Shown: positions 1,763 to 18,750 of the stretch, piece by piece
Layout of the letters: each line of letters opens with the position of its first letter
How positions within the stretch are numbered: the stretch's first letter is position 1
IMG/VR virus record: IMGVR_UViG_3300045988_096302
From: a virus
DNA: 60,112 bases
Direction: 5' to 3' (one strand)
Position numbers and translations under genes: made by a program
Notes under the pieces: generated by a model
The model's input: the letters and a program-made list of their open reading frames with translations, nothing else
Told to the model about the DNA's origin: nothing
The model's database searches: none

Positions 1763-2653
1763 ATGAATAAACTTGAAGAGTTTAAGCTCTATGTGTTAAA
1801 GCGTAGAGATGCCTTTGAGCACAAGTACAGAATAGGTAACAAGACTGTGGGAGATCTTTACAGATATGATCTTCCTAACAATCTAAAATACCTTGATGAC
1901 ATGTCTCAAATGTTTATTAGAACACTAAACACAGCTAGAGTACCCCTAAGGGATAAACTACTTACTGTGTATGTTTATCGCTATATAGGTCATGAAAAGT
2001 ATGTCAGAAGATGTACTAATGAACATGATGTAATCACAATACATCAACTAGAGAAGTTAGCAACTAAGCTTAACTCAGCTAAGGCTAAACTTTCTCCTAA
2101 CTACAAGTCTCCTGCTATTCAGGTAATGACTAGAGAGCTTAATAGAGGAGAAAGGTTTCTTGCTTCCTGTGCAGATTTCATTGACAAGCTTCCTGATGAT
2201 CTATTCTATGGATGGAAGTGTAGTGAGATCTATAGATACTATAATAAGAAGTGTGATGTGTATGGACTGAGTAAGTTCACAGCTTATAACCTAGCTACTG
2301 ACCTAGCTTACATTAATGAGCTACACATTGAACTAGACTTTATTAATGGATGCTCACCTAGCATGAGAAAGATGTACCTTGAAATTGTAGAGAAGGATAG
2401 GTTTAATGCACAGGAGTATAAGAAGTTTGCTATTGACTTTATGAAGTGGTATCTAGATCAGCCTTTTGCAGATAGCAAAGAGAGGATCATTACCCCTAAT
2501 GATGTAGGACACATGCTTGTAGCTTACTATAAGCTCACAAGAGGTATGTGCAAGATTAGATACCCTAAGAAGACTAGGGCTAAGGTCAGTGACTTGGTAA
2601 TATCAAGGAGTATGTATGAATTTTATAAAGGTGTACCAAGTGAAACTGATTGA
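1763..2653 (+). CDS. hypothetical protein (296 aa)
   Basis: Long ORF with RBS AAAGGAG 9 nt upstream of the ATG. An upstream ATG at 1759 terminates after 3 codons. Confidence 0.6.
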   Translation: MNKLEEFKLYVLKRRDAFEHKYRIGNKTVGDLYRYDLPNNLKYLDDMSQMFIRTLNTARVPLRDKLLTVYVYRYIGHEKYVRRCTNEHDVITIHQLEKLATKLNSAKAKLSPNYKSPAIQVMTRELNRGERFLASCADFIDKLPDDLFYGWKCSEIYRYYNKKCDVYGLSKFTAYNLATDLAYINELHIELDFINGCSPSMRKMYLEIVEKDRFNAQEYKKFAIDFMKWYLDQPFADSKERIITPNDVGHMLVAYYKLTRGMCKIRYPKKTRAKVSDLVISRSMYEFYKGVPSETD

Positions 2654-8450: not shown

Positions 8451-9734
8451 CTATTTATCATCAATAAAGCAATCAAACTTGCAATCCATAAGGTCACATC
8501 CACCTTTAATGAGAGGAATAGTTTCTACTTTCTTCTCAGGTTTAGGAGGAATTGTAGGCTTCTTAGGAGGTTGCTCATTAAATGGTTTAGGTTTGGTAGC
8601 ATTGTTCACAGGGGGTTGTTCAGTGAATGGAGGGAAAGGTGCTCTAATAATCTGCTCTCTTGTGTATACATTTTGGTGTCTATCCCCTGGATTACTTCCT
8701 CTTACCTCTACTTTCAAGTGAGTAAAGTTAGCAGGTAAGTTAGTGAATGTCTTATTCCACTTGATAGTTGATAGATGCCAGTTAGGCTCATAAGCAAGCT
8801 TTTGTGTATCAGCATGCTTAGCAAGTAGGATATCCTTTTGGACTACTGAGTAGTTGTTTCCTCCATCAGTAGAAGCATACACATCAAAGTACCAATCATA
8901 AGTACCACCATACTGAACATACCATCCTTGTAGTCTACCACCAACACCAGCCTCATAGGAGTATCCTAAGAGGTTTAATTGGATATCTACAATAGTTCCT
9001 TCATTATTCTTAGAAGTGAACCCAATACCTTGACCATAACCATTTCTGTGAGCTTCACTTAGGTCAATACCTTGGACACTACCATTAGGTGATCCACCCA
9101 TAGCAACATCTAGAGGTGCACCATTACGTTGGAATGTACCCCAAGCTTCTTGCCACTTAGTAGCTCCTCCTTGTTGGTTGTTACCTGCTTCATACTCACG
9201 TTTTCTTCTCTCATAATCAGCTTTTCTAGCATTGTAAGAAGCAAGAGCAGAAGCATAGTTAGAGTTACTATTATTATATGCTTGTAAGGCTCTTTCATAT
9301 TCAGCCTTTCTAGCATTATAACCATTTAGACTAGCCTGATAATCAGACTCAAGTCTTCTCTTCTCAGCTTCCCAATTTGATTGGTCAGGAGATGGTTTAC
9401 TAGCCTGATCTGAGTTGTACACACCAATAAATCTATTAACACTTTCAATTCTCTCAGCTAAACAGTGCTGTACTTCACAAACCTTCTGTGCTTTACGCTG
9501 TAAGCACTTCATACGTTTAATTATATCACAGATGATCTCAATAATGTTCTTGATATTACACCATATTCTGAAGAACCCATGTGCTGTATTTTCTTTTACT
9601 TTACACTCTTCTCCATTAGCAATAGCATCACCAGCCAACTTCACAGAGTCAGCTAGGTCATGCTTCATCTTCTCACATTCATGAGCTTTATAGAACTTTA
9701 TCCTGCATCTGCAATTAGGACAATACTCAAACAT
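8451..9734 (-). CDS. Cys-rich-N-terminus protein with Tyr-heptad helix, globular domain and Pro-rich segment
   Basis: RBS AGGAGG. N-terminal CPNCRC...WCNIKNIIEIICDIIKRMKC. Tyr at residues 132, 139, ... 181 (every 7th residue). PFPPFTEQPPVNNATKPKPFNEQPPKKPTIPPKPEKK lies near the C-terminus. Confidence 0.5.
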   Translation of the reverse strand: MFEYCPNCRCRIKFYKAHECEKMKHDLADSVKLAGDAIANGEECKVKENTAHGFFRIWCNIKNIIEIICDIIKRMKCLQRKAQKVCEVQHCLAERIESVNRFIGVYNSDQASKPSPDQSNWEAEKRRLESDYQASLNGYNARKAEYERALQAYNNSNSNYASALASYNARKADYERRKREYEAGNNQQGGATKWQEAWGTFQRNGAPLDVAMGGSPNGSVQGIDLSEAHRNGYGQGIGFTSKNNEGTIVDIQLNLLGYSYEAGVGGRLQGWYVQYGGTYDWYFDVYASTDGGNNYSVVQKDILLAKHADTQKLAYEPNWHLSTIKWNKTFTNLPANFTHLKVEVRGSNPGDRHQNVYTREQIIRAPFPPFTEQPPVNNATKPKPFNEQPPKKPTIPPKPEKKVETIPLIKGGCDLMDCKFDCFIDDK

Positions 9735-9742
9735 AGTGCCTC

Positions 9743-10618
9743 CTAGCAGTTATCACAGTCAATAACACATCCTTCAACTTTAGGAAGAGGTGAGTTGTTA
9801 TTTACATAGGTAGCTCTCACATCACTTGATGTAGGGTCATAATCCCACTGGTCAAGTGTCTTGAATAGCAAGATATCTCCTGTGCTACCTCCTTGAGGTC
9901 TAAGGACTGTTTCCTTACCAATAGAGATAGATCCAGGCTTATCAGTGAAGCTTGATCCTGCTTGATAAGATTTAGTCCATACAGTTCTTCCATTAGTATC
10001 TAGGATAGAGAAAGTAGCATTGTTTCCATAGCTTCCTCCATCACCAATGTATTTAACACCATCAAAGTCAACTCTAGATACATGGGCTTTAACAGATCCA
10101 TCTTCATTCATAGTGTACATGTGAGATACCTTACCAGTGATAGTACCTCTACCTACTTCTCTACCTGCATAAACCATATTCCACACAATAGCAAAGTCAC
10201 CATTTTGTTGAACAGTCACAGATGTGAAAGTGTCTCCATATCCAGCAGAATTGGCAGATGTACCTACACCTTTCATACCAAAGACAACATTCTCAAGCAT
10301 TTTTCCTTTAATGTGTTCCACAAGACCTGTGATTCTTTCATCCTGACACTTAGCAATAGAGCACAGCTTGTCTACCTTAGACTCTAAGCACTCTAGCTTA
10401 TTAAGGATGTAGCATAGCTGGTTAATGATATTCTTAAGAACACACCACACACCATAAAAGCCTCTTCTGATAGCCTCAGGTAGATTACACCATTCAGCCT
10501 TTAGAATAGCTCTCATTTTAGGTCTAATTTGAAGGTCATTAAGCTCTTGTAGCTTGGTACAGTCTCCAATACCTACATTCTCACAGGAGCAGTCCTTTTG
10601 TTTACAAATGTCTTCCAT
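9743..10618 (-). CDS. Cys-rich-N-terminus protein with beta-rich C-terminal domain (291 aa)
   Basis: RBS GGAGGA. N-terminal CKQKDCSC...WCVLKNIINQLCYILNKLEC belongs to the same family as 8451..9734. Confidence 0.5.
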   Translation of the reverse strand: MEDICKQKDCSCENVGIGDCTKLQELNDLQIRPKMRAILKAEWCNLPEAIRRGFYGVWCVLKNIINQLCYILNKLECLESKVDKLCSIAKCQDERITGLVEHIKGKMLENVVFGMKGVGTSANSAGYGDTFTSVTVQQNGDFAIVWNMVYAGREVGRGTITGKVSHMYTMNEDGSVKAHVSRVDFDGVKYIGDGGSYGNNATFSILDTNGRTVWTKSYQAGSSFTDKPGSISIGKETVLRPQGGSTGDILLFKTLDQWDYDPTSSDVRATYVNNNSPLPKVEGCVIDCDNC

Positions 10619-10660: not shown

Positions 10661-12919
10661 TTAACCAAACAATAAGTGGTTTAAGTTCCAAGCAGAAAGC
10701 CAGATCTCTCCTGAAGTTCTAAGCTTGAATTTTCTCCAATAGTAGTTTCCATCTCCTACACCACCTACACCAGTATCACCAGTTGCAGTTTGGTCAAACA
10801 CAAAGTAGTCACCTACATGTGTCACTTGATTAGGAAGTTTAACACCATTCTTATCTGTGATAATGATATCCTCTACAGCAATACCATTATCTGTCCAGTT
10901 AAAGGCTACTGGTACAAGCTCTTTGCTGTATACTTGCCACAAACCATTGACATATTTAAGGTCATCTACTCGGTAAGCATGTTGCATCTTACCAGGAGCA
11001 GAAGGTTTAGGTGTAGCTTTAGAAGGAGTTACATATTCAGCACCTCTAGCCATAGCTACAAGTCTATCAATGTCAATTCCTCCTGGACAGTTACCTACAA
11101 TAGTAGTTCTACCATGTTGACGAATTAAGATTAAGCCTGATGTAACAGATACACAAGAAACCAATCTGTTTTGTTTTCTTTGTGCAGATTTAGCTAGAGT
11201 ACCTTTAGATGTCACACTTCTAGTAGCATTTGTGAAGTAAAGTCTGTTACCTTCTGTAGATGTTCTACTACCTGTGTTGTGGAGAGAAGCCACAGCTTGT
11301 ACCACATCAATGTTTTGTGATAGAGATGAGGAATAATCATTACCTGCTCTACATCCATCAAAATCTAAGATGTAGTCAAGGAAAAGTTTAGCTTGTCTAC
11401 TAGACATATTAAGAAATTCCCAAGAGAATTTTTTGTTGTCTAGATATTGTTCCACTTCTTCAACTTCTTCAGCTCCATAAATACGGAATGAGTAAGTACC
11501 ATCTTTCTTCTCAGCAAAGGTGTATTCTTTACCTAGCTCATCAAGGATATCATTAAGTAGCTCTACCTTTCTATCCTTCTTCACATGGAACTCAATACCG
11601 AAAGGTTTCTTTTCAGAAGTTCTGCTGTCATACATATAATGACCATCAGCTTGGACAGCTACAAGGTAACGTATGAAAGTATCTGATATAGGTAAACCTT
11701 CTGCTTCATAACTTCCTGCATTAGGGAATACTAGAGTACCTTTAGTAGAGAACATGTCTTTAGCTTCACTAACTTTGTAAGCTGTCCCTGATTGAGATTT
11801 CCACAACATTCTATGGTCAGAAGTGACTTCAACATCTCTGAAGAACCATGTATCCTTAGTATGAGGCTCTACTTTGTTGTACACTGTGTCAAAGATAATG
11901 CTTCCATCATCTAATCTGTATGTAGCAATTTCATCACCTACTTGGATATCTTTTAAGCTTACCCAACCTTGTTTAGTAAGGAGTTCAGTACCTTCAACAG
12001 GTAAACACGCTGTAGATGATACTTCACCGTGCTTCAGAATGTGTTGTCTATCAATAGGAATGTTGTAGCGTTCACAGATATCACGAATGAGCTTAGCAGA
12101 GTTTCTATAAGTTTCCTCAGCAATAGTCCATGTAGGAGCACCAGTATTATTCAAATGCTCAATACCAATAGAGCGTTGGTTCATTGGATAGTTTCCTGCA
12201 TGGTAAGCAACATAGTTCTCACCAACACATCCCCAGATCTTATCAGGAGTTACCTGGTAGTGAGCAGATGTCCCATGACCTGAAGAAACGTACCAAGTAT
12301 GTCTAGCCACAGCATCATTGGTAGTTGCATTGTGGTGAATAACAATTCTGTCGATCTTAACACGGTTTCCATCAGAGTTCATTGGGTTAGGGTCTACACC
12401 AGTAATAAGTCCTGAGTAGATTTCACCATTAATATTTTTAGCAGGTACAGCCACAGCAGTGTTTCCTCCTTGTGTTTTAGCTTGTGTAGCCTTCTTCTTA
12501 AGTCTGAAGGCTGTAGGATAAGTAGCAGAGTAAGGAAGCTTCACAAGGTTTGCAGAAGATCCTCCTGCTGGGTTAGTAAGTTGGCTTCCTTGGTTTTGAC
12601 CTAAGAACCATCCAAAACCTCCACCAGCATCACTATCAAACAATGCTACGTGAGATACAGGAGTCCATCCAGCTACCTCTTTAAAAACAGCCACATCTCC
12701 TTCTTCCATGATCTCTACTTCATCAAAGTACTTTAAGATACCATTAGTCCGTCTTTGTTCCCAAAGATCTTTTACGTAGCCTGACACAGTGCAGTTAGCA
12801 AAAGGTACTCCATTTTCTCTACACCATTGTGCATAAAAATCCCAGCATTGCCAGCCATAAGCACCATCTACATCTGTACCCTTATTCATCCACTTGGACT
12901 TAAAGGTTTTGTAGTCCAT
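10661..12919 (-). CDS. endolysin precursor: CHAP + Amidase_2 (interrupted by an intein) + SH3b-type cell-wall-binding domain
   Basis: CHAP: GWQCWDF...SHVALF. Amidase_2: IVIHHNAT...AYHAG...IGIEH...HILKHGEVSSTA / CPGG. C-terminal YYWRKFKLRTSGEIWLSAWNLNHL is SH3_5-like. The holin lies directly upstream. Confidence 0.9.
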   Translation of the reverse strand: MDYKTFKSKWMNKGTDVDGAYGWQCWDFYAQWCRENGVPFANCTVSGYVKDLWEQRRTNGILKYFDEVEIMEEGDVAVFKEVAGWTPVSHVALFDSDAGGGFGWFLGQNQGSQLTNPAGGSSANLVKLPYSATYPTAFRLKKKATQAKTQGGNTAVAVPAKNINGEIYSGLITGVDPNPMNSDGNRVKIDRIVIHHNATTNDAVARHTWYVSSGHGTSAHYQVTPDKIWGCVGENYVAYHAGNYPMNQRSIGIEHLNNTGAPTWTIAEETYRNSAKLIRDICERYNIPIDRQHILKHGEVSSTACLPVEGTELLTKQGWVSLKDIQVGDEIATYRLDDGSIIFDTVYNKVEPHTKDTWFFRDVEVTSDHRMLWKSQSGTAYKVSEAKDMFSTKGTLVFPNAGSYEAEGLPISDTFIRYLVAVQADGHYMYDSRTSEKKPFGIEFHVKKDRKVELLNDILDELGKEYTFAEKKDGTYSFRIYGAEEVEEVEQYLDNKKFSWEFLNMSSRQAKLFLDYILDFDGCRAGNDYSSSLSQNIDVVQAVASLHNTGSRTSTEGNRLYFTNATRSVTSKGTLAKSAQRKQNRLVSCVSVTSGLILIRQHGRTTIVGNCPGGIDIDRLVAMARGAEYVTPSKATPKPSAPGKMQHAYRVDDLKYVNGLWQVYSKELVPVAFNWTDNGIAVEDIIITDKNGVKLPNQVTHVGDYFVFDQTATGDTGVGGVGDGNYYWRKFKLRTSGEIWLSAWNLNHLLFG
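11090..12007 (-). mobile_element. 306-aa intein with LAGLIDADG homing-endonuclease core, inside the endolysin
   Basis: Block A is CLPVEGTELLT (Cys1 codon at 12005..12007) and block B is VTSDHRML. The LAGLIDADG motifs are LVAVQADGHY and ILDFDGCRAG. The C-terminus is ILIRQHGRTTIVGN followed by Cys+1 (Asn codon at 11090..11092). Removing it restores H-x7-C...CPGG. Confidence 0.85.
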
Positions 12920-12921
12920 GT

Positions 12922-13128
12922 TTACTCTCCTTGAGATTCATTATATTTTTTGCTTGAGATACCTAGCACAGTACCAGTGAAAGTGGTAAGTAATGCTAAA
13001 GTACCTGTGATAGCAGTTGAGTCAAATTTGTAGAGTGCTCCTAGCCCTGTAATCAAAGTGATTAAGGCTGGTGCAACTACAGTAACAAGCTTTTTGTATA
13101 AGTCATATTGTTTATTTGTTAAGTTCAT
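12922..13128 (-). CDS. holin (68 aa, two predicted TM helices)
   Basis: RBS AAGGAGG. Hydrophobic segments VVAPALITLITGLGALY and GTLALLTTFTGTVLGI with a charged C-terminus. It lies immediately upstream of the endolysin. Confidence 0.7.
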   Translation of the reverse strand: MNLTNKQYDLYKKLVTVVAPALITLITGLGALYKFDSTAITGTLALLTTFTGTVLGISSKKYNESQGE

Positions 13129-15946: not shown

Positions 15947-17008
15947 CTATCTTACATAAACATCAATGGATGTTTTCTCATTGGTTAAGTAGGCTTTACC
16001 CTTAAAACCAAAAGGAGTGTCATAAAGTCTACCCTTAACATCACCCCAAGATGAAGGCACAGAAAGGATAATATGACCATCTTGGTCTGAAAGGAAGCCA
16101 TAAGCATTATAGCTCTTATTCACATTTACACTTGTAGGGAAGTTGTTACCTGAGGAATAAGTCCACTCATAACCACTATATTCTACCCTACCTAGTGATA
16201 TAAATTGAGCCAAAGTGTAGATCTGTTGAGTACCCGACTGATCTAGTCCATCACTAGTCTTATCTGAAAACTTGTCATAGCCATTAGCCTTCTCAACTTC
16301 TTTCTTACCTGGCTCTTTGTCTTGCTTAGAGTACTCAGTTTTCTCTTTTACAGCAGATTTAGGAAGGTAGCCAACAGTACCATTGTACTTATCATAGATA
16401 AGCCATTCACCACTGATCTTACCTGTAACCTTGTTACATTTATAAAAGGTATCAAGCACAGTGTTGTCACCATTACCTTTAATACCTTCAACCTTGTCCA
16501 CTACAATCTCATAGAAAGTTCTTTGTACTCCACCACTCTTCTTAGGTTTACCTGCATCAGCACTAGTACCACTAGACCCATCAGGAGTATAGTTATCTTG
16601 TCCTCTAATTCTAACAATCCTAAGAATAGTTGCTCCATAGCCTGTAATAGTTCTTGTGTGCTCAATTACATGTGTGATACCATTGAAGTTTTGCTCAATA
16701 ACTCTAGCATTATTTACTCCACCTCCACCATACACAAGAGTGTGTCCATAGGGAGTGCTTGGTTCATTGGTAGAAATGATATCACCCACTTTAAGTTGGG
16801 ATTCATTTGAGTAAGGAATAACATCAGCAAAGCTACTTACATCATTACCTATACCAATCTGATTACCATTACCTAGTAAAGACCCACCAAATTGTTGAGC
16901 TACCCAATTCACAAGGTCTACACACTGGTAGGGTTGACTAGGAGGAAAGCCATCAACATCAATGGATTGTCCCACTACACGCTGTGCAACTTGGTAAGCA
17001 TTTGTCAT
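15947..17008 (-). CDS. virion-associated CHAP-domain peptidoglycan hydrolase
   Basis: N-terminal PYQCVDLVNW (catalytic Cys) and PYGHTLVY (His). It lies within the tail module. Confidence 0.65.
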   Translation of the reverse strand: MTNAYQVAQRVVGQSIDVDGFPPSQPYQCVDLVNWVAQQFGGSLLGNGNQIGIGNDVSSFADVIPYSNESQLKVGDIISTNEPSTPYGHTLVYGGGGVNNARVIEQNFNGITHVIEHTRTITGYGATILRIVRIRGQDNYTPDGSSGTSADAGKPKKSGGVQRTFYEIVVDKVEGIKGNGDNTVLDTFYKCNKVTGKISGEWLIYDKYNGTVGYLPKSAVKEKTEYSKQDKEPGKKEVEKANGYDKFSDKTSDGLDQSGTQQIYTLAQFISLGRVEYSGYEWTYSSGNNFPTSVNVNKSYNAYGFLSDQDGHIILSVPSSWGDVKGRLYDTPFGFKGKAYLTNEKTSIDVYVR

Positions 17009-17508: not shown

Positions 17509-18750
17509 CTAGTTGATGTGACTGAACTTAAGGAAGTTTCTTAGTGTAATCTGTGCTTCTCCTAGTGCATACACAGTGAAAATCTTCTCACCAGCACTGA
17601 ATAAGGCACTTCTCTGAGCATCATTTAGATACCATGCAGAATACATTAAGTCATAACCTTCCATTGGGTTACTATTGGGGAATATACCTTCACCACTAGC
17701 ATCATCACCAATCCAGTTACATCCCCACTGTCTTCTGAAGATCTCAGTAAGCTCAATCTCAGAAAGCTCTCCTGTAGCCTCATTCTTAGCACTTACAACT
17801 AAATGGACATCTGATAGAGGAGTTACTTTCTTACCATCACACTGTGACACATCCATCTTAATGATGAACTTTAAGAACCATCTTTGGAATCTATCTAAGT
17901 CACTTGGCACAAGGACTCTAAACTGAGCAGATCCTTTAGTTCTATCAATCACAACAGTGTCACTTGGAGACTCATTCTTTTCCTTAGGTGATTCATCTTT
18001 ACTTTCAAGGGCTTTCTTGACCACTTCAAAGTACTTGTTAGCTCCATCAATACGCTCTTGGAGTGCATTACCTGGAACACCACCCCAGTCAGCTAAGAAA
18101 CGTGTAGTAAGCTGTGCAATATCACCATCACTAGAGGCTACTTCTTTTACCACATTCTTTAGTGTCTCTTCAGACATCATGAAAGCTACTTGTGTGTTGA
18201 AAGTGAAGATGCTACTATTTCTAGCTCTAGCAAACTCATAGAGAGCCTTAGATCTTGGACCTGTCCACTGACCTAACCCTAGACCAATCCAGTGTTTACC
18301 ACCTACATTGTACCCAGGCTCATTAAGAGGGTCTTTATAGAGTGATGCAAAAGCTTGCCATGATCCCATGAGATTTTCTGCTGTAGGCTCTTGTGCTACT
18401 TTATCATATTGATGCCCTGTAGCGTAATCAGCTTCATATCTTCTAGCAGTTACATTAGACTCTCTCACAAAGTAGCCAATAATAGCAGATACACCTTGTG
18501 CCTTAGCCTCAGGAATTTCTTTCTTGATAGCTCTAGCAAAGGTTTTTACTCTTGTTTCAATATCATCACTCTCTGATCCTTCAATACTATCATCTGAGTA
18601 AGGAGCACAGGAAGAGGCTGTAGATAAAGAGTCAACATAGTCAAGTGCATAGAGGTCAGTTACCCCTCCTCTACGCTGTTTTGATTGTTGGATTACTCTT
18701 GATTTAGTTCTACTAACAGTATTCACTAATTTATTTAGATAATCTGCCAT
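17509..18750 (-). CDS. tail-associated lysozyme-like protein
   Basis: RBS AGGAGG. The segment KHWIGLGLGQWTGPRSKALYEFA resembles the phage tail lysozyme family. Confidence 0.45.
   Translation of the reverse strand: MADYLNKLVNTVSRTKSRVIQQSKQRRGGVTDLYALDYVDSLSTASSCAPYSDDSIEGSESDDIETRVKTFARAIKKEIPEAKAQGVSAIIGYFVRESNVTARRYEADYATGHQYDKVAQEPTAENLMGSWQAFASLYKDPLNEPGYNVGGKHWIGLGLGQWTGPRSKALYEFARARNSSIFTFNTQVAFMMSEETLKNVVKEVASSDGDIAQLTTRFLADWGGVPGNALQERIDGANKYFEVVKKALESKDESPKEKNESPSDTVVIDRTKGSAQFRVLVPSDLDRFQRWFLKFIIKMDVSQCDGKKVTPLSDVHLVVSAKNEATGELSEIELTEIFRRQWGCNWIGDDASGEGIFPNSNPMEGYDLMYSAWYLNDAQRSALFSAGEKIFTVYALGEAQITLRNFLKFSHIN

Follow-up and report, generated by a model that had tools for sequence, protein, structure and literature searches.

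The interrupted endolysin gene and its lysis cassette

We analysed IMG/VR virus record IMGVR_UViG_3300045988_096302, a stretch of 60,112 nucleotides (nt) that is called the window throughout, and in which the gene of a phage endolysin is interrupted in frame by 306 codons. Taking all data together, we consider it highly probable that the interruption is a mobile class-1-type intein with a double-LAGLIDADG endonuclease, inserted in front of a cysteine codon whose product is the predicted third zinc ligand of the amidase domain, and directly adjoining this codon on its 5′ side. A LAGLIDADG intein had been proposed here in a preliminary description. Its coordinates (11090–12007), the 752-amino-acid (aa) lysin and the 306-aa insert proved exact to the base, and each of the motifs it listed (Cys1, block B, both LAGLIDADG motifs and a terminal ...TTIVGN followed by Cys+1) is present. 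The features of the lysis locus, all on the minus strand, are listed below.

10661–12919, minus strand: open reading frame of the endolysin precursor (752 aa plus stop), with CHAP-like, intein-split Amidase_2 and ZoocinA_TRD parts; matches PHROGs endolysin families
12922–13128, minus strand: holin of the Dp-1 type, 68 aa (Pfam Phage_holin_Dp1, E 1.1e-14; PHROG 881 holin, E 3e-23)
12500–12919, minus strand: CHAP-like cysteine peptidase domain, aa 1–140, with GWQC25 and SH90 motifs (profile match; PHROG 291 endolysin)
12008–12358, minus strand: N-extein part of Amidase_2, aa 188–304 (Pfam Amidase_2; alignment to XlyA, PlyL and PlyG), with the motifs IVIH195HN, AYHAG and SIGIE254H, and with His297, predicted to be the second His of the zinc site and located 8 residues N-terminal to the splice junction
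11090–12007, minus strand: putative intein CLPVEGTELLT...GRTTIVGN, 306 aa, protein aa 305–610 (empty site, fold, homology, conservation)
11708–12007, minus strand: N-terminal Hint subdomain, intein aa 1–100 (invariant C1, T62 and H65; beta-rich model)
12005–12007, minus strand: Cys1 codon
11813–11824, minus strand: block B, T62-x-x-H65 (TSDH)
11198–11707, minus strand: putative double-LAGLIDADG homing endonuclease domain, intein aa ~101–270 (model helices, conserved Asp-Gly, Foldseek)
11636–11665, minus strand: LAGLIDADG motif 1, LVAVQADGHY, intein aa 115–124
11342–11371, minus strand: LAGLIDADG motif 2, ILDFDGCRAG, intein aa 213–222
11090–11197, minus strand: C-terminal Hint subdomain, intein aa 271–306 (C285, G305 and N306 invariant in 76–77 homologues)
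11144–11161, minus strand: block F, VSC285VSV, with Cys in place of the usual class-1 Asp
11090–11092, minus strand: Asn codon of block G, TTIVG305N306
11087–11089, minus strand: Cys+1, protein aa 611 (Cys305 once the lysin is spliced); nucleophile of the splice junction and putative third ligand of the zinc
10664–11089, minus strand: C-extein, aa 611–752, with CPGG and the end of the amidase, a linker and ZoocinA_TRD (Pfam; PHROGs endolysin C-terminal families)
10667–10978, minus strand: ZoocinA_TRD cell-wall targeting domain (PF16775), aa 648–751 (Pfam, E 3.9e-30)

The holin gene lies directly upstream of the lysin gene, with 3 nt from its end to the lysin start. The N-terminus of the lysin (MDYKTFKSKWMNKGTDVDG) is hydrophilic and, by inspection, has no signal sequence. 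Since the holin adjoins a lysin with such an N-terminus, the protein is taken to be a cytoplasmic endolysin that forms a lysis cassette with this holin, and the arrangement of an adjacent holin and a lysin lacking a signal sequence is the canonical one.

In the precursor, the Pfam match to Amidase_2 (PF01510) covers aa 188–305 and ends at position 128 of the 131 positions of the profile, right at the insert. The assignment of the two outer domains had to be revised. At the C-terminus an SH3b domain had been described, but a Pfam search of the whole protein found no SH3 family match there and placed ZoocinA_TRD instead. The N-terminal CHAP assignment is tentative: no match to CHAP (PF05257) was obtained at E<1 with Pfam, whereas a profile built from 12 homologues of this domain matched the CHAP structures of lysin L2 and LytN, a weak match (E 0.007–0.01) in which GWQC and SH are aligned with the catalytic Cys and His. 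Both C25 and H90 are invariant in the 12 homologues. The extein is nearest to lysins of Streptococcus prophages (45–49% identity), and this kinship together with ZoocinA_TRD suggests a streptococcal or related lactic-acid-bacterial host.

Near-identical alleles contain an exact empty site

Homologues of the lysin were searched among 5.8 billion proteins. Alleles bearing the intein are 750–752 aa long and 81–93% identical to the window lysin, and alleles lacking it are 446–447 aa long and 94–96% identical, the latter length matching the 446 aa that remain when 306 are subtracted from 752. In the intein-less alleles the N- and C-extein matches abut and no residue is lost. At the DNA level, removing 918 nt from the window gene leaves 1341 nt that align without gaps to the intein-less gene at 91.9% identity on two independent contigs (L003 and L004). 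The junction peptide HGEVSSTA/CP, in which the slash marks the splice junction here and below, is identical in some intein-less alleles. Aligning the junction to intein-less lysins, a check named in the preliminary description, thus gave an exact colinear empty site.

When clustered at 90% identity, the intein-bearing lysins form a cluster of 209 members and the nearest intein-less lysins one of 261, and both are found on syntenic contigs of ~60 kb. Such a presence/absence polymorphism among syntenic phages is consistent with homing. Furthermore, the intein-plus alleles of the window and of contig L005 are 100% identical over the 90 nt that flank the junction on its 5′ side. When the window is compared with L003, which lacks the intein, identity falls to 0.79–0.83 in the 90-nt blocks around the junction, compared to 0.92–1.00 elsewhere. 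The stretches concerned are the following.

12008–12100 and 11000–11089: extein flanks with lowered identity to L003

This dip could be a co-conversion tract, or it could reflect divergence of the target site and endonuclease-resistant variants. A search for a homing site shared by divergent hosts at the nucleotide level found conservation of the His codon and TGY-CCN-GG (encoding Cys-Pro-Gly) only, and therefore no target sequence of the endonuclease could be defined.

The insert parts the predicted third zinc ligand from the amidase

Splicing in silico joins ...H297-GEVSSTA to C-PGG and gives His297-x7-Cys-Pro-Gly. The Amidase_2 match then reaches positions 4–130 of 131, and its score, 85.1 bits in the precursor, becomes 91.0 bits (cut-off 26), so that the restored His-x7-Cys spacing and CPG motif, as foreseen in the preliminary description, were seen together with a completed domain match. 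In an alignment of the spliced amidase with XlyA (3HMB), PlyL (1YB0) and PlyG (2L47), each represented by its catalytic domain, H195, H297 and Cys+1 fall on H29, H129 and C137 of PlyL, the last of which is followed by Pro138, and on the corresponding residues of XlyA and PlyG. In T7 lysozyme the counterpart pattern is His17/His122/Cys130. The three PlyL residues are those that we take to be its zinc ligands (Low et al. 2005). The idea that the +1 nucleophile is itself the metal ligand of the amidase agrees with this alignment, and Cys+1-Pro is invariant among the homologues.

The His-x7-Cys motif is contiguous in XlyA, PlyL and PlyG and in all intein-less homologues whose junction was read out. 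In the precursor, 306 residues lie between the main part of the domain and the segment with its last metal ligand and the C-terminal end of its fold, and the amidase is therefore most likely inactive until splicing has occurred.

Fold, homology and conservation of the insert

A phmmer search of the intein against the sequences of the PDB gave just marginal matches to I-MsoI (E 0.18), and a comparison of folds was therefore needed. An AlphaFold2 model of the intein, based on a 25-sequence family alignment, reached a pLDDT of 96.4 and a pTM of 0.92. Its top Foldseek matches in the PDB are inteins that bear an endonuclease, namely TliVMA and PhoVMA (E 1e-12 to 6e-12), PI-PfuI, PI-SceI and PI-TkoII. 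As modelled, the insert would have the Hint fold of inteins. The helices 109–121 and 203–216 of the model each finish in a conserved Asp-Gly (LVAVQAD121G122 and ILDFD217G218). The central domain resembles I-DmoI (target-normalised TM-score ~0.6, E 2e-5), and Foldseek also matched it to I-SceI, I-WcaI and the endonuclease domains of PI-SceI and PI-PfuI.

With tblastn the insert aligned over 97–100% of its length to annotated phage inteins, with E values down to 4e-26. The NAMPT intein (annotated as Hint) and the RNR-alpha intein of Staphylococcus phages match end to end (E 4e-26 to 6e-15). Other phages gave matches to inteins in their genes for RNR, DNA polymerase, primase/helicase and RtcB, and 130 mycobacteriophage records match with what is the phosphoesterase/RDF intein of Cluster A1. 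The proposal of a LAGLIDADG intein is thus borne out by the empty site, by the Hint and double-LAGLIDADG fold and by kinship to known inteins.

Conservation was assessed in homologous inserts, including those of the 76 intein-bearing amidases found among the top 120 homologues. C1, P3, T62, H65, G122, G218, C285, G305, N306 and C+1 are invariant in 76–77 inserts, and D121 and D217 are kept in at least 90% of them, while the exteins of these inserts are just ~27–37% identical. Among 8 close copies (synonymous divergence, dS, ~0.4), the ratio of nonsynonymous to synonymous substitutions (dN/dS) is ~0.12 in the N-terminal Hint part, the endonuclease (0.11) and the C-terminal Hint part alike, and so both the splicing and the endonuclease functions look maintained. 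Together, the intein alignments, the absence of the insert from near alleles and the invariant residues point to far more than a chance resemblance.

Standard domain libraries return no significant intein call for the insert, which would fit 306 aa that are no intein at all but an accessory domain, for example one binding DNA or the cell wall, retained in the mature enzyme. We see practically no chance for this. The insert is also seen in proteins with no relation to lysins (RNR, NAMPT, phosphoesterase, DNA polymerase and primase/helicase), and it breaks a His-x7-Cys metal motif that is contiguous in the solved amidases. A colinear accessory domain was ruled out by the exact presence or absence of 306 aa in alleles that are 94–96% identical, together with the Hint/LAGLIDADG fold.

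Non-canonical residues and the splicing class

Several points count against reading the insert as a splicing and mobile intein. Two residues that canonically assist splicing are absent, the penultimate His being replaced by Gly and the Asp at position 4 of block F by Cys. Hint_2 stays below its Pfam threshold (E 0.2; 12.4 bits vs 28.4), as does LAGLIDADG_1 (14.5 bits vs a cut-off of 23.1), and NCBIfam gave no match at all for the lysin. The CHAP-like domain might let this lysin tolerate an unspliced or dead amidase and, since it could cover for the amidase, conservation in this one gene alone is no proof that splicing is needed. The divergence of the junction flanks in some intein-minus alleles falls short of proving homing. 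Finally, the anatomy of the insert, its empty site, fold, kinship, conservation, purifying selection and distribution are what the data show, and splicing, endonuclease activity and inactivity of the precursor are conclusions that we infer. Of the domain models that had been suggested as a check, Amidase_2 was thus found, while the Hint and LAGLIDADG models stayed below threshold; a family-specific hidden Markov model (HMM) scores the window intein at 475 bits.

The penultimate Gly is found in 76/76 amidase inteins, and Gly-Asn ends 157 of the 162 full-length copies of the wider family, which was drawn from 1.84 billion representatives. According to Kelley et al. 2016 (PMC5050341), the penultimate His is often absent in phage class-1 inteins. 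They showed that splicing is complete in the Bethlehem RDF intein, which has a penultimate Gly, and that a Gly-to-His change slows it; the endonuclease of this intein proved toxic to E. coli. The Gly that had been pointed out as a departure from the usual His is indeed present, but it is no anomaly; it is a family trait with a precedent in the Bethlehem RDF intein.

The absence of the penultimate His and of the block-F Asp, and curated HMMs that stay below threshold, could also indicate a decaying insert that no longer splices, in which case the amidase would be dead and the CHAP-like domain alone would lyse the host. In many two-domain lysins of Gram-positive hosts one catalytic domain adds little activity. 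A decaying insert is nonetheless very improbable in our judgement. The residues of the splice junctions are all invariant in the 76–77 copies, dN/dS is 0.12 across the whole intein, and the zinc ligands and CPG motif of the extein are intact. Moreover, in precomputed Pfam lists most host proteins of this intein clade show Amidase_2 as the sole catalytic match (e.g. with PG_binding_1, CW_7 or SH3 domains), and a failure to splice would abolish their function. The combination of Gly-Asn with a block-F Cys splices efficiently in the Bethlehem RDF intein (PMC5050341).

The block-F Cys285 is common to the inteins of Staphylococcus phages (Stab23 and Romulus) and the Bethlehem RDF intein. A Cys at this position (F:4) is the nucleophile of class 3 inteins, where standard inteins usually have Asp (PMC2807308). 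By a class-3-like route, Cys285 and not Cys1 would attack the N-terminal junction, and a branched block-F thioester would form and be transferred to Cys+1. The hallmark nucleophile itself, its invariance both in this clade and in the relatives from Staphylococcus phages and Bethlehem, and the three inteins on record that carry the WCT triplet and start with Ser or Cys (PMC2807308) would be in line with this. Yet Cys1 (76/76) and the Thr-x-x-His of block B, a class-1 trait, are invariant, and the triplet lacks its Trp and its Thr, with Met at B:12 and Val at G:5. In addition, the +1 residue is Cys, whereas class 3 inteins typically have Ser or Thr (PMC2807308), and the homologous RDF intein was handled as class 1 by Kelley et al. 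(PMC5050341). A class-3-like route is therefore quite unlikely. Membership in class 3 proper was rejected on the invariant Cys1 and the incomplete WCT triplet (Met67 and Val304, with only C285 fitting). We file the element as a class-1-type intein that, by its residues, has an unusual conserved third Cys (C285).

Distribution of the intein clade and a second intein in sister alleles

All 76 intein-bearing amidases share the site His-x7-/Cys-Pro, and their architectures are varied, including PG_binding_1, CW_7, SH3 and choline-binding domains. The same site is occupied in 18 of 19 IMG/VR loci, and 77 intein copies at this site were counted among the 150 best representatives at 50% identity. As far as these sequences tell, the amidase intein is widespread in phage lysins from metagenomes. 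The copies in GenBank phages show at most 30.2% identity to the window intein and the metagenomic inteins borne by amidases at least 39%, so that no GenBank phage appears to carry the amidase intein. A scan of GTDB species representatives found two close copies only, in metagenome-assembled genomes (MAGs) of Clostridia and Saccharibacteria. Phage contigs are thus the main home of the element, and a set with one genome per species rarely contains it. The window lysin is recorded as a 'hypothetical protein', and no source name that we examined labels members of the family as inteins.

Members of the clade also occupy other positions in Amidase_2. One site, IH(H)/C...GN/C(A/M)AG, lies just past the first zinc His. 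Another, AWH/C...GN/CGN(W/Y), lies within the conserved aromatic-His-Ala-Gly motif, which reads AYHAG in the window lysin; there the +1 Cys stands in place of Ala. (The slash within brackets separates alternative residues.) These two further sites are used in proteins P0039, P0054, P0122, P0184 and P0194 and in L007, the Saccharibacteria MAG; two of these proteins, P0039 (983 aa) and P0054 (914 aa), each have two clade inteins within one amidase domain. Divergent Amidase_2 domains carry the clade at AWGGHxx/C. In P0211 (639 aa), a lysin with Amidase_5 (PF05382) and ZoocinA_TRD, a 'CLP...VGN' intein follows ...GALGH/ and the +1 residue is Thr, and thus the clade is not confined to Amidase_2. 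Four further hosts of the clade (P0187, P0213, P0229 and P0245) have no Pfam domain.

In sister alleles of the window's own phage lineage that lack the window intein, a second, unrelated and canonical intein of 297 aa (CLTGEYLV...YADNxLHHN/C) is inserted at GWQ/C25, the putative nucleophile of the CHAP-like domain, and its Pfam LAGLIDADG_3 match is above the cut-off. It is carried by P0027–P0029, P0034, P0056 and P0104 and by locus L047 (701–3844). The window allele is empty at the C25 site (12839–12856 encodes GWQCWD), and searches with a family HMM and phmmer found no further copy of either intein in the window. Both inteins occur together on the IMG/VR contig L047, confirmed by sequence, and in the ENA protein P0272 (1051 aa), as judged from its length. 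When both are removed from L047 in silico, a 444-aa lysin remains that is 77% identical to the window lysin. In L047 and P0272, both catalytic domains would need splicing.

A broader reading takes lysins as a second, unrecognised major intein niche, with the 'CLP...VGN/C' clade at three or more Amidase_2 positions and one Amidase_5 position and an unrelated intein at the CHAP-like nucleophile. In this reading the endolysin would be made as a zymogen, and splicing, which might respond to Zn2+ or redox state because Cys+1 is nucleophile and metal ligand at once, would aid the timing of lysis or shield the cell from wall damage that comes too early. We consider this reading as a whole unlikely.

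Proposed mechanism and the question of gating

We infer the splicing route from intein chemistry. The 752-aa precursor would be produced in the cytoplasm late in infection. The Hint domain would fold, Cys1 would undergo an N-S acyl shift, and the thioester would be handed to Cys+1. Asn306 would then cyclise without a penultimate His, as in related Gly-Asn phage inteins, and an S-N shift would religate ...H297GEVSSTA to CPGG.... The expected products are a lysin of 446 aa in which the His195/His297/Cys zinc site is complete and a free 306-aa endonuclease. On co-infection the endonuclease would presumably cut lysin alleles without the intein, so that the intein is copied in, and such homing would account for the presence/absence polymorphism in near-identical phages. 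As a selfish passenger, the intein would persist because it occupies a codon that the host protein cannot change and splices fast enough to spare lysis, and the timing of lysis would be set by the holin.

A conditional form of this mechanism has to be weighed, in which splicing acts as a checkpoint on lysis that responds to redox state, Zn2+ or time, a second timer beside the holin. Activation of the amidase, or of both catalytic domains in alleles with two inteins, would then wait for such a signal. The three invariant cysteines (Cys1, Cys285 and Cys+1) could form regulatory disulfides, and by the alignment Cys+1 doubles as a zinc ligand. Mills and Paulus reportedly found in 2001 that Zn2+ reversibly inhibits several inteins, which would also fit a checkpoint. 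Some alleles have inteins on catalytic residues of both lysin domains. Conditional splicing is known in other inteins (PMC6195587, PMC5790916 and PMC11377839), and Kelley et al. argue that splicing rate is tuned through the penultimate residue in phage inteins (PMC5050341).

On the other side, plus and minus alleles are similarly abundant in otherwise syntenic phages, and the intein is therefore dispensable. A canonical holin is present, and the lysin, having no signal peptide, matures in the reducing cytoplasm. Furthermore, the nearest tested Gly-Asn relative splices essentially fully before assay (PMC5050341), and an intact, selected endonuclease domain fits a mobile selfish element better than a domesticated switch. 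A lysis checkpoint is thus unlikely. The redox- or time-gated lysis considered in the preliminary description found no support, given the coexistence of plus and minus alleles, the holin as the usual timer and maturation in a reducing compartment. Most likely the intein is a selfish element that splices constitutively.

Inteins in lysis enzymes

Known inteins concentrate in proteins of replication, recombination, repair, nucleotide metabolism and packaging. In the open-access literature we found neither an endolysin nor any other peptidoglycan hydrolase described as carrying an intein, in agreement with the preliminary description, which knew of no endolysin intein. None of 224 mycobacteriophage LysA genes has an intein (PMC3314691), and the 2016 and 2025 surveys of actinobacteriophage inteins do not mention lysins. 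The element itself is of a known kind. Its host class is unexpected and its distribution large, and within one lysin two catalytic residues are targeted.

Its presence in an enzyme of lysis widens the range of proteins that host such elements, with a whole clade in peptidoglycan hydrolases that always sits on catalytic or metal-binding residues. It would be a clean natural case, beyond the enzymes of nucleic acids, of the logic of hiding on an unchangeable codon. Since routine annotation misses these inteins, lysin catalogues and the mining for enzybiotics carry ~300 aa of sequence that is not lysin, and constructs made from them may misbehave. With a +1 nucleophile that is predicted to be the catalytic metal ligand, the gene may offer a ready-made self-activating lysin zymogen for engineering. 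The alleles with zero, one and two inteins in near-identical ~60-kb phages could serve as a natural system to study homing and any cost of an intein to lysis timing, and the clade-invariant set of Cys1, block-F Cys and Gly-Asn is a useful variant for studies of the splicing mechanism.

Phage genome context

The window encodes a terminase, a portal protein, a tape-measure protein, a DNA polymerase and a primase/helicase, and it matches syntenic contigs of ~60 kb. It is therefore likely to comprise a siphophage-like genome of that size in large part or completely. Neither the lysin gene nor a 24-kb part of the window had a megablast match among 50,697 GenBank phages, and the nearest TerL is that of the Lactococcus P087 group, with 26% identity; the lineage has no sequenced relative among isolates. 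Dozens of syntenic ~60-kb contigs are present in Logan, ENA and IMG/VR, which indicates an abundant but uncultured phage lineage.

The tail module contains two further genes for peptidoglycan hydrolases, one with Phage_lysozyme2 (17509–18750, minus strand, 413 aa) and one with a Pfam-positive CHAP domain (15947–17008, minus strand, 353 aa). Both are presumably virion-associated lysins, and neither has an intein.

Directly downstream of the lysin gene lie two genes (9743–10618 and 8451–9734, both minus strand) whose products have similar Cys-rich N-termini with the shared pattern CxxC...WC..KNII..IC.I...L.CL..K..K.C. The product of 9743–10618 matches the BspA adhesin variable domain (E 1.3e-13); that of 8451–9734 has no family match and a Pro/Lys-rich tail. 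Adhesin-like genes after a lysis cassette are an unusual placement.

A 296-aa protein (1763–2653, plus strand) matches the 5-hmdU DNA kinase helical domain PF18723 with an E value of 3e-6, barely above the cut-off, and on the syntenic contig L003 a dUTPase gene is close by. The match and the dUTPase hint at possible hypermodification of thymidine in the phage DNA.

Comparison with known systems

Phage lysin genes with mobile interruptions are known from group I introns, e.g. in Streptococcus thermophilus phages (Foley et al. 2000, PMC111580). They are reported to be mobile and self-splicing, to interrupt lysin genes in phages of lactic-acid and streptococcal hosts, and to be present in some related phages and absent from others. 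These introns splice at the RNA level and leave no precursor protein, whereas removal of the window intein would be post-translational and pass through a transient inactive proenzyme. Post-translational self-processing is also seen in the 'trigger and release' endolysins CD27L and CTP1L (PMC4110038). In these, however, cleavage takes place in the linker or C-terminal domain, there is no ligation and no Hint domain, and the element is not mobile.

Among solved inteins, TliVMA and PhoVMA (7QSU and 7QST), PI-PfuI (1DQ3) and PI-SceI (1VDE) have the same two-domain fold as the model of the window intein (Foldseek E 1e-12 to 3e-8; query-normalised TM-score ~0.6). They share the class-1 arrangement Cys1...Asn/Cys and an I-DmoI-related double-LAGLIDADG domain. 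They differ in being only 9–14% identical, in having a penultimate His, in their larger size with extra DNA-recognition regions, and in their V-ATPase or RNR exteins.

The closest annotated inteins are those in NAMPT (Stab23 g198) and RNR alpha (Romulus gp066) of Twort-like Staphylococcus phages, which are 28–30% identical over aa 7–306. They share with the window intein the block-F Cys (HCVSV and YCVEV), the Gly-Asn end and the QADG LAGLIDADG motif. Their exteins, on the other hand, belong to nucleotide metabolism, the classical intein niche, and not to lysins.

The intein in the RDF/metallophosphoesterase gp51 of Bethlehem covers 97% of the length at 22.5% identity (tblastn E ~1e-4; pairwise 7e-11). 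Its low identity, its host protein in recombination and DNA metabolism and its occurrence in phages of Actinobacteria set it apart, and although it ends in Gly-Asn (...LTGN/S) like the window intein, its +1 residue is Ser and no metal-ligand Cys. Both inteins are built from Hint and LAGLIDADG domains and have Cys1, a T-x-x-H (TANH in Bethlehem) and a block-F Cys (VWCLRV vs VSCVSV), and the Bethlehem intein, like that of the window, sits in an active-site metal-binding motif (GNHD/C).

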